From: a virus
Lineage: Duplodnaviria; Caudoviricetes
DNA: 64,000 nt
Strand: one strand, 5' to 3'
Virus record (IMG/VR): IMGVR_UViG_3300032004_000002
Location: 1-64,000 of that record
The notes under the pieces were generated by a model. It was given only the letters and a program-made list of their open reading frames with translations, did no database searches and was not told the DNA's origin. The translations under genes and the position numbers were made by a program. Positions 26,204-31,264 of this stretch are shown piece after piece (positions within the stretch are counted from its first letter, which is position 1; each line of letters begins with the position of its first letter).

Positions 26204-27451
26204 TTACAAAAGAACTTCTTGCGAAGACTGGAATGTAAAGGTAGGTGTTCCTGTTACGTTAACAGTTCTCAGGCGTACATATTTGCCTGCCGGAATAATA
26301 CCAGATAAGTTGGCTGTTCCTAGGTTTGTAATACTCAACACACCACCGGTTGATTGACCACTTGAACCAACAACTGTTACCCCGGTTGTAAATCCAATTT
26401 CGTTAGCATACTCAAGATAAACACGTCCCGATGTGCCAGCGATTAATACGGCAGCAACAGTTATATCTACAGAATAACTTACCTGTGCATCTTGTGTAGA
26501 ACTAATCTGAAATGCTGTGTTAAGTGTACGTGCCGGATTGGTAAATGTTCTTACCGGAGCACTGTAATTAGGAACATTCAATACACCAGTTGTGCTATTG
26601 TATGTTGCGGCCCCCGTTGTTCCCGTAGTAGTTAAACTTACAGAAGTTCTTGCTCCGGATTGAGTAATATAACTATTGGGGTTAGTAGTTCCGTTATATG
26701 GAGTATAGCCCAACGCTGTAGATACTTGACTACTACTAATATTTGTCAGATAACCAGCGTCATTTGTAAATGCACTAACAGCAGTTGGAACTGTAGGGAT
26801 AGCTGGGAATGTAGCCAAACTGCCATCACCACGAAGATACTGAGTGGTAGTGCCTACAGGAGTATTAAACTTAGTAGAAAGACCGTTTGTCAATGCTGTT
26901 GTTGTAGCATATCCAGCAAGACTAGTACTCAACGCAGATTGACTCACAGCATCTGTGATCCCATAACCAGATACAGTTGTTGGTGTGGCTGTAATAGTTG
27001 ACCAAGCTTGTGTATGGGCTGCGGGAGTAAAGGTGGAAGGTTTGTTGAGCAATACTCCTAAACCACTAACAGCATTCCAATCAGTCTGGACTTGAGCAGG
27101 GGGCGAAGGAACCTGAGAAAGGGTTATGTATCCAGCATCATTTGTAAGTTCGGAAACATTTTCAGGAATTTCAATTCCTAACATTCCCCTGATCATTTGC
27201 TCAGAATTAGATGCTATGATTTGTTGGGCTAGCGGACTGAATGTGAATGGCTTGAAATTTGAAGACGAGTCAGTGCCCATCAGTACAGAAGGTATCTTCA
27301 TACTGGGGACTACAAATCCACTACCTTCCATTTGGTTTGAGCTATTTTTATAGAACAACTCATTTACAGGCATTTCTGCAAGGAAGGTATCCAAACGAGG
27401 GTCGGTTACAGAACCACCACCTTTAACGGGTCTTTGGGGTCCAATAGCCAT
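26204..27451 (-). CDS. virion fibre-like protein outside the tail module
   Basis: TNDAGY repeats, QTDWN, LNKPSTF, PTTVSGYGITDA motifs typical of phage fibre shafts. Confidence 0.6.
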   Translation of the reverse strand: MAIGPQRPVKGGGSVTDPRLDTFLAEMPVNELFYKNSSNQMEGSGFVVPSMKIPSVLMGTDSSSNFKPFTFSPLAQQIIASNSEQMIRGMLGIEIPENVSELTNDAGYITLSQVPSPPAQVQTDWNAVSGLGVLLNKPSTFTPAAHTQAWSTITATPTTVSGYGITDAVSQSALSTSLAGYATTTALTNGLSTKFNTPVGTTTQYLRGDGSLATFPAIPTVPTAVSAFTNDAGYLTNISSSQVSTALGYTPYNGTTNPNSYITQSGARTSVSLTTTGTTGAATYNSTTGVLNVPNYSAPVRTFTNPARTLNTAFQISSTQDAQVSYSVDITVAAVLIAGTSGRVYLEYANEIGFTTGVTVVGSSGQSTGGVLSITNLGTANLSGIIPAGKYVRLRTVNVTGTPTFTFQSSQEVLL

Positions 27452-27729
27452 TATTGTTCACCATCATTAACCATGATCACTACACGTCCAGCAGACGTGC
27501 AACGAATCCAAACACCTGATAAAGTTCCATCAAGATAAACAGTAGCATTAGAGGCAACCGAATACCCATCTGTTGTGGTCACTGGGGTGCTTGGTCTCAC
27601 TTGGATTAAAAATGGGGCCGTGATCTTATTTTGAATAATAAGAGGTTGACCAACAGTAATACCGGTAGCAGAATAAATCTCTGTCCAAACACCGGCAACA
27701 AGTTGTAAATCAGGTAAAGTATTTGCCAC
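27451..27729 (-). CDS. hypothetical, probably a virion accessory protein
   Basis: 92 aa beta-rich ORF translationally coupled to the fibre gene. Confidence 0.5.
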   Translation of the reverse strand: MANTLPDLQLVAGVWTEIYSATGITVGQPLIIQNKITAPFLIQVRPSTPVTTTDGYSVASNATVYLDGTLSGVWIRCTSAGRVVIMVNDGEQ

Positions 27730-27779
27730 TTTAAAACACCTTTTATTATTTTATTTAGAGGTGTCTTGTACTGAGGAAT

Positions 27780-28156
27780 TATAGCCTATAGACAGACAGC
27801 ATAGGCTTTTGGTTGGGCAGCCTCTCTGCTTTGAATCAACCGACCATACTTCATAAATGATTGGTTATAGTATAGTTGATTAGTCTCCCACGCTACCTTG
27901 GAACTAACCTCTGCCTCTACACAATAAGAAGCTCTCACCACTGATCGTCTTTCCGATCTGCCATTTATTTGATCACCTCTTCATTTAAGCATAAACCTAA
28001 ATGGTTAGAATTCCCCGATGGGTATCAGCACAAAGGTGCATAACGGCTCTAACATCACCTACACGTCTTTCCGTAAGTGTCATTTACAACAGACCCCGCC
28101 AGAGGTCTTAAGGTGAGAACTAGGCAGCTCTCGATACCAGACCGCAGTCTGATTCT
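27780..28156 (-). ncRNA. candidate large structured ncRNA (~370 nt)
   Basis: No ORF; many nested stems; two identical C-GGAAAGAC-G loops; terminal AGCCUAU/AUAGGCU hairpin. Confidence 0.6.
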
Positions 28157-28576
28157 TTATTCACCATCATCTTCGTCATTAGGATCAATATATACTAGTG
28201 ACAATCGAGGTTTACTTTGTTCTGCTACTTCTTCTACGGTTGGTTCATCAATTTCAGCTTCGTCCCTTTTCCCTTTAAGACGTGCTTGAAAGTTACCAAG
28301 CTCATCTTGAGATGCAGAACGAGTCATTGTGACAATTGCTGAAAGCAACCACTTAGCACTTGAGAGACTTTCTGAGTTAACTTCCATCTCATTAAGACTG
28401 CGATCAACCAAAGCAATTGCTACATCTTCACGCTCTTGAAGTTTCTCGGCCAACTTACGAAGCTTGGATTTATTAACACGAACCTTACTATTTCCCTTCA
28501 AATTTTGGTTGGACTCTTCAGCACCAAACCTATTCTTAGGGCTAGGATTTCTATTTGTAGTTTTCTTAGTAGTCAT
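28157..28576 (-). CDS. hypothetical, possible terminase small subunit
   Basis: Basic NPSPKNRFG..NQN.KG N-terminus, helical core, acidic tail; upstream of the terminase operon. Confidence 0.4.
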   Translation of the reverse strand: MTTKKTTNRNPSPKNRFGAEESNQNLKGNSKVRVNKSKLRKLAEKLQEREDVAIALVDRSLNEMEVNSESLSSAKWLLSAIVTMTRSASQDELGNFQARLKGKRDEAEIDEPTVEEVAEQSKPRLSLVYIDPNDEDDGE

Positions 28577-28600
28577 GAGATTACCTATTTGTAAATAATA

Positions 28601-28790
28601 TTTCTTAAATACACTCTATTACAGAATGTCTGTGTTCACTACGTGAGGAATGTATTTAAGAAAGCTCACTTATCACGGGAGAGAACATAATAAGTGAGCG
28701 AATAACCAAACAATCCGAAGAGGAGGAGAGAAAAGATTGTTTGGTTAGGAAGACAAAGCTATGTTATAGAATTTCTACTTAGGCTTTGTC
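28601..28790 (-). repeat. array of four abutting perfect inverted repeats (13, 10, 13, 8 bp stems)
   Basis: 28601-613/28651-663; 28664-673/28690-699; 28703-715/28735-747; 28752-759/28783-790. Confidence 0.85.
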
Positions 28791-28798
28791 GGGAGAAA

Positions 28799-28884
28799 TG
28801 GTGGTTGAAGGAAGGAATTGAACCTCTAGCCTTGGCGCCGGATTTACAGTCCAGTGATAGTAGCCATCTATCTCTACATCAACC
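28799..28884 (-). tRNA. tRNA-Tyr(GUA), non-canonical
   Basis: Anticodon arm CUGGA-CUGUAAA-UCCGG, T-loop UUCAAUU, encoded ACCA end; 13-nt acceptor+T 3' strand. Confidence 0.75.
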
Positions 28885-29009
28885 AATAAATAATCCTAGC
28901 GTCTGCTAGGCTACGGCGAAGTACTACACTACCTCTCGCCCTGTCTTGCTCCGTGATTATCTCCATGATAATTCTGCACCGAAGACTTTATGTTCACGTT
29001 AAACACTAC

Positions 29010-29084
29010 AAGCCCTCAAGGGGAGACTCAATAAACTCCGTCAAGTTTAAGGAGTGGATTACCACTATCTACAACAAGGGGCTC
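29010..29084 (-). pseudogene. highly degenerate tRNA-like element
   Basis: 75 nt, GAGCCC/GGGCUU terminal stem, D-loop-like AGUGGUA, ACUCC/GGAGU stem; no T-loop. Confidence 0.3.
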
Positions 29085-29099
29085 AAAGGCCTATACACG

Positions 29100-29178
29100 A
29101 AAACAAGATGAAGGGTTCGAACCTTCGGATGCCTCAGTATTGGGTTTGCAGAACCCACTGCTTGCATTCTATCTGCGT
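29100..29178 (-). pseudogene. pseudo-tRNA (Cys/Ala-like anticodon arm)
   Basis: Perfect T-arm GAAGG-UUCGAAC-CCUUC, UGGGU-UCUGCAA-ACCCA arm; bulged acceptor, no CCA. Confidence 0.55.
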
Positions 29179-29314
29179 CAACAATAGTCCACTCTGTCAA
29201 TCATGTCTCGGAAATGACGCTGTAAAGTCGCCGTCATACTTTATTTGATGCTCAGAGATTTCAACTAAGCACATCAAATTCTTCCCAGCAATTTTCACTG
29301 TCTGACTCGGTATA

Positions 29315-29342
29315 ATTATAGCACCTTTCTAACCATTGTCAA
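29315..29342 (-). promoter_or_regulatory. strong sigma70 promoter TTGACA-16-TATAAT with TG extension, driving the RNA locus
   Basis: Consensus boxes directly upstream of the tRNA-like cluster. Confidence 0.8.
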
Positions 29343-29374
29343 GCAATTTGTAACAATAAACGTTATTTACTACA

Positions 29375-29621: not shown

Positions 29622-29906
29622 TTAAACTGTATTGTATCCACCAAATACAGAAGGAATACACCAATTATCTTTAATCATTTTCTGTTTCTTTGCATTCAAT
29701 ATCTTTTCTTCTGTCTTTAGTTTCTTACAGGAAATAGACTTCCACGGTTCGGGGCAACACCCTACACAGACACAAGAGTGCGGATTGAAATTAGGAAGGT
29801 ATCGTTCTTTACTTCCGCACTCTAGACAACCACGTTTGATATTGAAATGATTAGTTTTACTTTTTACCGCTTCTGCAATCGTCATTGTTGGTAGTTCATT
29901 GTTCAT
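29622..29906 (-). CDS. hypothetical Cys-rich protein
   Basis: CLEC..CVCVGCC; coupled to the polymerase-like gene. Confidence 0.55.
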   Translation of the reverse strand: MNNELPTMTIAEAVKSKTNHFNIKRGCLECGSKERYLPNFNPHSCVCVGCCPEPWKSISCKKLKTEEKILNAKKQKMIKDNWCIPSVFGGYNTV

Positions 29907-31264
29907 TTCTTATCAACCTTGCAAAAAGTTTTATCCCCTAGTACTGTTTCCCATGCTGCATACATGGCGTCTTCTAAATCTTTCTCAGCGCTAGCTTTAA
30001 CCAAGCAACTGTCATGATAAGCTAATACTGTATGCCCCTTGACCCCCATTGCACCAACAATACGCATCATGATCTTACTATCAATATTCTGCAACGTAAT
30101 ACCGGCATCAGAAAAGAAGTGCTCTGCAATAAAATCGTTATGACTTTGCACAGCCTCAAGTACTGCTGAATAATCTACATTACCAACCATTGCATAAAAC
30201 TCTTGATCTTCAATACTATTTTGAGCACGATCAATCTTTACTTTATTACCAAGTGTCCAAGCTGCGCTGTTCTTATCATTAGAATTCATACCAATCAAAA
30301 TAGCTAGCTTAGCTAACTGTCGTACTGGATTGTGTGTTTTACCTGTCACACTTTCCCACTGTTCTTTCAAACGACCATCAACTTTAATAAACGAAAGGTC
30401 TGCATTGTAAGGAGAGAAGTCATCCCCCATCACATCATAAATACTAAAGCCATCTGTATTGTACATAAGCTGATAGCAGATGCTTGGGTGAATTGCTGAA
30501 TAGTCCAACTCCACAACCGGTTCACCGTCAATCTTCAGAGATGATGCACGCACATGTTGTGGAAGAAGCTGCACACCACCACCAAGAGTATAGAGACGTC
30601 CACCACTATCCAAATCCCCACTAAAGATACGGCGGTATGCAACATCAGCAATCGGACGATCATCGAAAGTAATAGATGCACCAGCCAGCATATCATTCAT
30701 ACTCTTAACCTCACCTTTGATGTCTTTAAATCCTTTATGACCCCGTGTTGGAATCATCTCTTTTGTCTCACGATTACGAATGATAGCTAGGTCATTATCT
30801 TCAAGCTCTTTCCATAGGTTGTAATTTGTATTCACATCAGTCCACATGTCTGCTGTTCTCTTTTTAAATATCATACACGAAGGAATGGACTCATCTGGAA
30901 TAAGACTTCCTTTGTGCATCTTCCAAGACTTCACATAGCCTTTATAAAGATCAATGTAACCCTTTGACTCAAGGAAGTCAACAAGAGATTTAATCTTTCT
31001 GTACCCAATACCTTGTCTTGACTTAGTGTAAGCATGTATATCAAGACTGAAGATAAAGCCACCAGCATTCTTCTTCACTGCACGAGCAGAGTTAGACACC
31101 CACCATCTTACTGCTTCTTCCCATTTATAGTTGGTATGTTCTAATACCTGATCTACAATCTTCTTGTAGTACTTAGACTCATGGAAATAGATATAACTTC
31201 GTACACACCTTAGATTAACAGAGTAAGCTTGATGCTCTGTCATATTACTTAATTCATAGATCAA
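29903..31264 (-). CDS. minimal PolA/T7-RNAP-superfamily polymerase-like protein
   Basis: GGRLY, motif A ELDYSAIHP, motif B RQLAK, motif C YHDS in the correct order; TTG start with AAGGAG RBS. Confidence 0.7.
   Translation of the reverse strand: MIYELSNMTEHQAYSVNLRCVRSYIYFHESKYYKKIVDQVLEHTNYKWEEAVRWWVSNSARAVKKNAGGFIFSLDIHAYTKSRQGIGYRKIKSLVDFLESKGYIDLYKGYVKSWKMHKGSLIPDESIPSCMIFKKRTADMWTDVNTNYNLWKELEDNDLAIIRNRETKEMIPTRGHKGFKDIKGEVKSMNDMLAGASITFDDRPIADVAYRRIFSGDLDSGGRLYTLGGGVQLLPQHVRASSLKIDGEPVVELDYSAIHPSICYQLMYNTDGFSIYDVMGDDFSPYNADLSFIKVDGRLKEQWESVTGKTHNPVRQLAKLAILIGMNSNDKNSAAWTLGNKVKIDRAQNSIEDQEFYAMVGNVDYSAVLEAVQSHNDFIAEHFFSDAGITLQNIDSKIMMRIVGAMGVKGHTVLAYHDSCLVKASAEKDLEDAMYAAWETVLGDKTFCKVDKK

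Follow-up and report, generated by a model that had tools for sequence, protein, structure and literature searches.

Locus and architecture of the RNA

We describe a structured RNA encoded on the minus strand of an uncultured tailed phage, in the spacer between the genes p139 and p92, which represents an uncatalogued RNA family whose fold is under selection. The phage is known from an IMG/VR virus record (IMGVR_UViG_3300032004_000002; Duplodnaviria, Caudoviricetes) of 84.7 kb with direct terminal repeats, and the first 64 kb of this record are referred to as the window. On the minus strand, p139 is followed by a spacer of 427 nucleotides (nt), which extends from the p139 stop codon (28159-28157) to the GTG start codon of p92 (27729), and then by p92, an open reading frame (ORF) of 415 amino acids (aa), p121 (121 aa), the gene for the large terminase TerL (phrog_979, E = 1.5e-157; PF03237) and the portal gene. 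The RNA is encoded in the same direction as a ~28-kb cluster of tail, terminase, portal and head genes and stands at its head.

An earlier note, made from the letters of the window, had read the interval 27780-28156 as a structured, multi-domain minus-strand RNA without ORF. The interval is indeed intergenic on this strand and without a conserved ORF, and the whole spacer folds better than shuffled sequences (z = -3.4; 0 of 100 shuffles as good). The family RNA itself occupies 28158-27865 (294 nt, with a core of ~170 nt). The proposed interval thus holds the family RNA, except that its distal part, 27864-27780, is not family RNA and belongs to the leader of p92. From 5' to 3', the RNA consists of the following parts; "model" denotes the covariance model R1, and loci with relatives are designated by L and a number.

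28152..28158, minus strand: conserved 5' boundary motif AAAGAAU, sharing two bases with the stop codon of p139
28138..28151, minus strand: hairpin P1, 5 bp, UGCG loop; the six model pairs are all changed on both sides, 90% of cells paired
28133..28137, minus strand: junction GUAUC (GGUAUC in the family), near-invariant in members with P1
28115..28132, minus strand: hairpin P2, 7 bp, loop GCCU, carrying CUAG; a local hairpin in every member
28091..28108, minus strand: hairpin P3, 6 bp, with the near-invariant hexaloop CUGGCG at 28097-28102; supported by a MAFFT alignment
28056..28079, minus strand: P4a, the first P4 copy, capped by CGGAAAGACG (28064-28073); aligns to the model P4 in the 5' half-match
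27962..28055, minus strand: phage-specific insert of 94 nt between the P4 copies, without homologue
27941..27960, minus strand: P4b, the second P4 copy, capped by CGGAAAGACG (27946-27955); aligns to the model P4 in the 3' half-match
27933..27940, minus strand: junction J4/5, GUGGUGAGA here and GUGGAGA in the family; near-invariant across the family
27913..27932, minus strand: hairpin P5, 6 bp; the seven model pairs are all changed on both sides, 98% of cells paired
27909..27912, minus strand: junction J5/6, AGAG here and in most members, ACG, AAG or AUG in others
27878..27908, minus strand: two-part helix P6 with a bulged G (27885); nine model pairs changed on both sides, 98% paired
27889-27899, minus strand: P6 loop of 11 conserved nt, consensus AGGNAGCGUGG
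27865..27877, minus strand: A/U-rich 3' tail, family consensus ACAAYUAUUUUAUA, conserved in the alignments
27834..27864, minus strand: hairpin-forming spacer outside the family core; a similar spacer occurs in L146

Recovery of relatives and distribution of the family

Relatives were recovered in three ways, by motif scans, through neighbouring proteins and with R1. Neither blastn of the stretch nor tblastn of p139 gave a match among 50,697 phage records, and no cultured phage in that collection encodes p139. Through the neighbouring proteins, a few IMG/VR contigs were reached in which the spacer could be aligned solely over its first ~105 nt or its last ~108 nt, which indicates two separate conserved elements within it. 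True relatives were recovered from viral, metagenome and genome collections by scanning for motifs taken from the conserved 5' portion. A first version of the scan was too loose, as chance accounted for most of its 119 matches, and matches in cyanobacterial genomes were discarded as conserved coding sequence rather than RNA. A search with p139 gave 42 homologue clusters, the contigs of which yielded further copies of the RNA.

More than 30 distinct copies, all on contigs of uncultured phages and ranging in size from 146 to 425 nt, were examined. R1, for which 12 simple members were aligned and six helices annotated by hand, detects the RNA in every member with E-values of 1e-7 to 1e-46 and finds one copy per genome. 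The window matches R1 in two halves (66.3 bits, E = 1.8e-16; 58.9 bits, E = 2.2e-14) because an insert splits its duplicated P4 copies.

The carriers form a clade of lytic-looking, uncultured phages of ~80-92 kb from soil and rhizosphere samples. Judged by the terminase, the nearest cultured group is the Pseudomonas Pakpunavirus group, with ~47% TerL identity. In a strict motif scan across the genomes of 185,579 bacterial and archaeal species, the RNA was found on a single contig, which is 3.6 kb long and phage-like. The sequencing runs that contain the window phage are from rhizosphere and soil and comprise DNA only, with no RNA run among them.

The novelty supposed in the earlier note was borne out. 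None of the 4227 models of Rfam 15 matched at the gathering threshold over the whole window, and even at E <= 10 the region 27400-28600 gave only chance-level hits to the SR1 antisense RNA (17 bits, where the threshold is 45) and to mir-27. No description of the RNA was found in Rfam or in the searchable literature. A group I intron was considered and rejected, given that there is no Rfam match, that p139 ends at its own stop codon, and that the downstream genes have their own starts and differ between members.

Fold, covariation and strand

The conserved core of ~150-180 nt comprises the helices P1 to P6 with near-invariant loops and junctions between them. In the family, the order is AAAGAAU at the 5' end, P1, GGUAUC, P2 (loop GCCUAG), P3 (hexaloop CUGGCG), AAAUG, the variable P4, GUGGAGA, P5, AGAG, P6 (bulged G, loop AGGNAGCGUGG) and the A/U-rich tail. 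Most members have AAAGAAU at their 5' boundary, also where an additional 5' domain is present. The sequence CUAG is invariant in the alignment of the 12 simple members, and one relative has CUUAG. P1 is closed in relatives by UUCG, GNRA or UNCG tetraloops. Two hairpins listed in the earlier note, CAGAC/GUCUG and AGACC/GGUCU, are P1 and P3, respectively, and both are conserved and covary in relatives.

Covariation in homologues, the absence of which the earlier note had named as an argument against its own proposal, is strong. In an alignment of 35 rows, 94.7% of cells are paired; sliding the partners lowers this share to 27-42% and shuffling to 59.6%. Changes on both sides are seen in 32 of 34 pairs, and none of 500 shuffles reaches any of these measures. 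As this alignment was fitted to R1, P3 was re-tested on an independent, gap-free MAFFT alignment of 32 copies that was anchored on the loop only. All six pairs of P3 were changed on both sides and were 91-100% paired, against 32-47% in slid controls, and the loop-closing pair was U-G, U-A or G-C. When members are folded singly, each forms P2 as a local hairpin, and the arm sequences differ. Based on these results, the RNA family and its fold are almost certainly real.

The conserved structure is that of an RNA of this strand, and not of duplex DNA or of the opposite strand, as G-U pairs far outnumber A-C combinations (103 versus 4). This bears on the view that the element is a DNA-level site (a pac site, a promoter or a protein-binding array) or a chance fold without RNA function. 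The tail does resemble -10 or T7-type promoter cores in some members, and repeated CTATAAT boxes occur just upstream in L018 and L203. However, the compensatory changes keep pairing on one strand only, and the 84.7-kb genome has a single copy of the tail motif, which is thus no repeated promoter, so that this view is hardly credible. The tail had also been considered as a repeated phage promoter, as it is T7/SP6-core-like in some members, but was dismissed for want of a second copy in the same genome. The boxes in L018 (~50 nt upstream of the RNA) and L203 (1960-2010) are three to four tandem copies of CTATAAT/CTATAAA directly before AAAGAAU and may be promoters dedicated to the RNA.

Other pairings proposed in the earlier note fared differently. 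The 9-bp helix GUUCUCACC/GGUGAGAGC is present in the window but unique to this phage, as other members form only 3-6 bp there, no better than shuffles, and it competes with the conserved local hairpin P2. GCAC/GUGC, GUUAGA/UCUAAC and the GGUAUC/GAUACC pseudoknot depend on the unconserved 94-nt insert and find no comparative support. A scan for loop-loop contacts and pseudoknots yielded only pairings among invariant bases (CUAG with CUGG; GUGG with the tail), on which covariation cannot judge.

The variable P4 and two expansion sites

According to the earlier note, one 10-mer, CGGAAAGACG, caps two separate stems at 27946-27955 and 28064-28073, and these coordinates are correct. The 10-mer occurs exactly twice in the 64 kb, both times on the minus strand, at a chance expectation of 0.05. 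The segment AAAUG-P4-GGUGA is found twice in the window, as P4a (28079-28056) and P4b (27960-27941) with 94 nt between them; the repeated cap is thus explained by duplication of the P4 module in this phage. The 94-nt insert has no homologue among ~220 loci and folds no better than shuffles (z = -1.0).

Most members have a single P4 hairpin with the loop GGAAAGAC. In at least nine relatives the loop differs (GGUAAG, GGCAAG, GUGAAUAGUG or CUUAAGAA), and L198 lacks P4 altogether, with a total length of 147 nt. Unrelated additions of ~30-260 nt occupy the P4 site in L002, L005, L145, L187, L188, L200, L203, L207 and L212. L212 has the same two-hairpin P4 layout as the window and a 3' half much like it, with a different insert; its insert of ~260 nt (L212:1990-2215) contains, as read by eye, an ATG-started frame of ~40 codons.

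A second expansion site is found in some relatives, in which an extra 5' domain of ~60-240 nt lies between AAAGAAU and P1 (L203:1915-2075, L207, L209:2510-2580, L210, L211 and L212:1615-1855). Inspected by eye, its closing helix covaries (UUUGUCUG/CAGACAAA, UUUAUCUG/CGGAUAAA, UUUGAAGG/CCUUCAAA, UUUGAGG/CCUCAAA).

The make-up of P4 is relevant to the suggestion that the RNA binds RsmA/CsrA through GGA loops and acts as a sponge for these proteins. Two hairpin loops of the window present GGA, and J4/5 carries GGAGA in most relatives (GGUGA in the window and several others). However, the GGA of GGAAAGAC sits on the dispensable P4, which in many relatives has one of the other loops or is missing. 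This leaves a single widely conserved GGA, that of J4/5, compared with many in known sponges, and neither the CsrB nor the RsmX/Y/Z families match. The binding proposed in the earlier note is therefore not upheld, and a sponge is highly improbable.

The conserved upstream gene p139

The features that flank the RNA in the window are as follows.

28157..28576, minus strand: p139 gene, 139 aa, an ORF; conserved upstream neighbour of the RNA
27736..27833, minus strand: separate p92 leader, consisting of element B (27765-27833) and a hairpin over the Shine-Dalgarno sequence (27736-27764)
27451..27729, minus strand: p92 gene, an ORF with a match to phrog_4770; one of several alternative downstream neighbours

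Homologues of p139 (131-139 aa) lie directly upstream of the RNA in 32 loci, usually at a distance of 0-170 nt that is interrupted in single cases by a tRNA, a 54-aa ORF or a 222-aa ORF. In the complete genome G003, p139 is followed by 288 nt and then by the RNA; the p139 homologue match in this genome (G003:C1:68937-69329, L221) contains one in-frame TAA, which may be a genuine break in the gene or an artefact at the edge of the alignment.

The earlier note had placed the RNA behind a putative TerS gene. This assignment is not sustained: p139 has no significant Pfam or PHROG match, its AlphaFold model is a plain helical hairpin (mean pLDDT, the predicted local distance difference test, 70.5) for which Foldseek found nothing in the PDB at E <= 0.001, and the gene adjoining TerL is p121, for which the protein atlas gave sub-threshold leads only. 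For p139, the same atlas offered a weak lead to DUF5681 (10% of one cluster). A conserved, basic and disordered N-terminus precedes two long helices. Together with the near-constant linkage, this predicted architecture makes p139 a reasonable candidate for an RNA-binding partner.

With a length of ~150 nt or more and a conserved same-strand protein gene immediately next to it, the RNA recalls the TnpB reRNA, the IscB omega RNA and tracrRNA. It differs from these in that p139 is helical, without a nuclease or any known domain, and in that the RNA described here has no variable guide-like end.

In several relatives, p139 directly follows tail-fibre-like genes (phage_tail_N and a faint YadA_head match; L203:1-1491, L206:102-1199), and genes for SGNH/GDSL lipase-like proteins (462-611 aa) come after the RNA in L198, L200 and L207. 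These neighbours place the p139-RNA pair at a hot spot of host-recognition gene exchange. The template RNA of a diversity-generating retroelement, considered on account of the tail-fibre genes, was rejected as the stretch is present only once in the 84.7-kb genome, and no reverse transcriptase family was present among the scanned neighbour proteins.

Further upstream, at 29903-31264 on the minus strand, a 453-aa protein (p453; phrog_4756) is conserved ahead of the p139-RNA pair in relatives, with 56-91% identity in five loci; in two more, identity is 25-31%. It has no Pfam match and no PDB sequence match.

Variable downstream genes and the leader of p92

The genes that follow the RNA differ among members and include p92, proteins of 98-100 aa, SGNH lipase-like proteins, proteins of 123, 222 or 272 aa and an 832-aa protein; p121, terminase and portal are conserved further downstream of these variable genes. 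The start codon that follows is ~30 to 250 nt away from the RNA, depending on the member, and the downstream genes have leaders of their own.

One such leader in the window is that of p92. It is 83% identical in L003 and L004, where it also precedes p92 but does not directly follow the RNA; in the complete genome to which L003 belongs, the RNA stands in front of the preceding 832-aa gene. The leader is present in L003 (2894-3000), L004, L059, L144, L146, L210 and L212. Two of its hairpins have changed on both sides between copies, the first from AGCCUAU/AUAGGCU to AGCCUGU/ACAGGCU or the reverse, the second, over the Shine-Dalgarno sequence, between ACACCU/AGGUGU and ACAAUCC/GGAUUGU, and it contains a TATAAT box. 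The leader is a candidate translational or transcriptional control element of p92. Element B as a repeated promoter was rejected, being present in a single copy.

These observations weigh on a riboswitch or another ligand-sensing leader that controls the downstream gene. The complex fold with its conserved core is aptamer-like, and the tail in the window can pair with downstream sequence (z = -2.7). The latter pairing is the long AAUCAAC.../...GUUGAUU stem of the earlier note, the 3' arm of which is supplied by the spacer 27834..27864. As a conserved structure, however, this stem does not hold: across the family, pairing of the tail with downstream sequence has a mean z of -0.2, and only 2 of 30 members fall below -2. 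In the first 450 nt downstream, 24 of 30 members also lack an intrinsic terminator. With neither a terminator nor a conserved alternative pairing, no expression platform can be recognised. As the downstream genes are unrelated between members, without a consistent class, and lie at variable spacing behind separate leaders, the RNA does not appear to be a switch for whichever gene follows, and a riboswitch is quite improbable.

Proximity to tRNA genes

The earlier note had pointed out that large non-coding RNAs occur near phage tRNAs. ARAGORN found no tRNA in the 64-kb window; about a third of the related loci, however, carry tRNA genes near the RNA on the same strand. In L099, P1 is preceded at a distance of 4 nt by the encoded CCA end of a tRNA-Thr, and in L187 a tRNA-Trp begins directly after the RNA tail, so that processing of these tRNAs would free the ends of the RNA there. 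In Pakpunavirus, the stretch immediately ahead of the terminase gene is taken up by a tRNA array.

In the window, a T-arm-like GGTTCGAACC lies at 29126-29110 on the minus strand. Relatives have tRNA arrays at this position, and the region 28600-29345 may hold degenerate or non-canonical tRNA genes. A 14-bp terminator-like hairpin is located at 28699-28664 on the same strand.

Contacts with tRNA genes are one reason to consider a new ribozyme, for instance a self-cleaving one that cuts the polycistronic transcript or helps tRNA maturation. Phage theta ribozymes abut tRNA genes, as described in a preprint (bioRxiv 10.1101/2023.06.13.544163), and two members of the present family do likewise. Near-invariant junction and loop nucleotides around freely covarying helices, together with tolerance of inserts, are also typical of catalytic cores. 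Yet no ribozyme family of Rfam 15 matches, most members have no adjacent tRNA, and a cleavage site cannot be read from the sequence. We consider a ribozyme improbable.

The T4 species 1 and 2 RNAs (rnaC, rnaD), which are 100-plus nt in length, are located in the tRNA region and are co-transcribed and processed with tRNAs. Like them, the RNA described here is a phage-encoded, structured RNA of 100-plus nt with orphan function that occurs among or beside tRNA genes. It differs in being tied to p139 and in that only some members touch tRNAs. GOLLD and ROOL are likewise orphan RNAs with complex folds, often in phages and near tRNAs, and combine a conserved core with a variable periphery; however, they measure ~500-800 nt, compared with 146-425 nt here, have other helices and motifs, and their Rfam models do not match this RNA. 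The likeness to T4 species 1 and 2, to GOLLD and ROOL and to the partner-adjacent RNAs named above seems to be one of general character and not of membership.

Terminase, loops and a possible role in packaging

The earlier note had listed a packaging RNA and a ribozyme among its suggestions, and no specific feature favours either. A packaging RNA, acting on the portal or terminase motor, has its precedent in the phi29 pRNA, likewise a folded phage RNA with a similar core size (~150-180 nt). The element shares its region with the terminase and portal genes, and the palindrome CUAG of the P2 loop could pair between molecules. On the other side, the Phage_pRNA model of Rfam gives no match, and covarying intermolecular loops of the pRNA type were not found: the loops of P2 and P3 are near-invariant instead of covarying between lineages, the CUAG-CUGG pairing shows no covariation, and the AG of CUAG is paired inside P2 in most members. 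In addition, the phages encode a complete, classical TerL of the T4 type (PF03237; phrog_979), and in no studied system is a T4-type large terminase known to need an RNA. A packaging RNA is accordingly very improbable. The phi29 pRNA nevertheless provides a precedent for a protein-bound RNA scaffold that acts late in infection.

A possible cis-acting module and a proposed stable RNA with a protein partner

More weight attaches to the possibility that the RNA works in cis, as a module of the late transcript that modifies the transcribing RNA polymerase to read through terminators in the manner of HK022 put or the Bacillus EAR, or as a structure that guides processing of the transcript or stabilises it in the stretch from p139 to the downstream structural genes. 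It is always on the coding strand, with a fixed place at the head of the ~28-kb cluster, and a perfect sigma-70 promoter (TTGACA, 16 nt, TG-TATAAT) is located 1.2 kb upstream of the RNA, at 29342-29315 on the minus strand. Compact members end ~30 nt before the next start codon. As with put and EAR, the RNA is an autonomous folded module within an operon, independent of the identity of the flanking gene, and like EAR it is placed after the first genes of a long operon. However, a simple consensus scan found no terminator-like site downstream of the RNA on this strand as far as 25500, and within 450 nt terminators are likewise missing in most of the relatives examined. Rfam reveals no similarity to EAR or any other family, and the RNA is larger than put and EAR. 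Its big inserts (95-260 nt) and the abutting tRNAs better suit a processed, stable RNA. A cis-acting module is therefore unlikely in our view, although it is an alternative of real weight.

We favour, with a probability of about 0.4, a stable RNA that acts as a scaffold for or partner of a protein. The RNA would be transcribed together with the upstream p139 and then trimmed at its A/U-rich flanks or, where a tRNA abuts, by tRNA-processing enzymes. The trimmed RNA would persist as a stable folded species and serve a protein as scaffold or partner, with p139 as the prime candidate owing to its conserved basic N-terminal arm and predicted helical hairpin. The combination of fixed boundaries, junctions and loops with variable spacing, large inserts and tRNA contacts suits a processed, stable RNA, with a conserved core for binding or catalysis, more than a gene-specific switch.

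Several points weigh against this proposal. The family, the fold, the strand, the gene order and the expansion sites are shown by the comparison; that a discrete, stable RNA species exists, is processed and has a protein partner is something we infer from sequence. The modelled fold of p139 appears uninformative with regard to RNA binding. The linkage between p139 and the RNA may reflect only a shared operon head, and it has exceptions: on the fragmentary record contig of L175 (16% complete), p139 is present while the RNA could not be detected within 14.6 kb, and upstream of the RNA of L187 the available 1.2 kb contain no p139. The short distance of ~30 nt to the next start codon in compact members makes a cis role on the mRNA possible. 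Finally, most of the covariation table rests on the alignment fitted to R1.

Significance

Parts of the motif may already be catalogued without function. A 2023 survey (PMC10690425) reports 8,495 candidate structured RNAs of 29-151 nt predicted from IMG/VR; the models of that catalogue reach at most 151 nt. The comparative work presented here provides a protein partner that can be put to the test, together with a covariance model and its seed alignment, and the clear expansion sites ease the design of minimal constructs, for which L198 offers a natural form of 147 nt.

The family is confined to soil phages and tied to one small protein, at a position where related phages keep tRNA genes. Covarying RNA classes with complex folds of more than 150 nt are rare, and those that have been solved (ribozymes, riboswitches, guide-RNA scaffolds) gave new biochemistry. 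It is possible, if on balance unlikely, that the RNA forms the functional core of a new phage system, either a late-acting ribonucleoprotein with p139 that serves in assembly, in packaging or on a host enzyme, or a new class of ribozyme. Such a ribonucleoprotein or ribozyme core would explain why the junctions and loops are near-invariant and the periphery is expandable.

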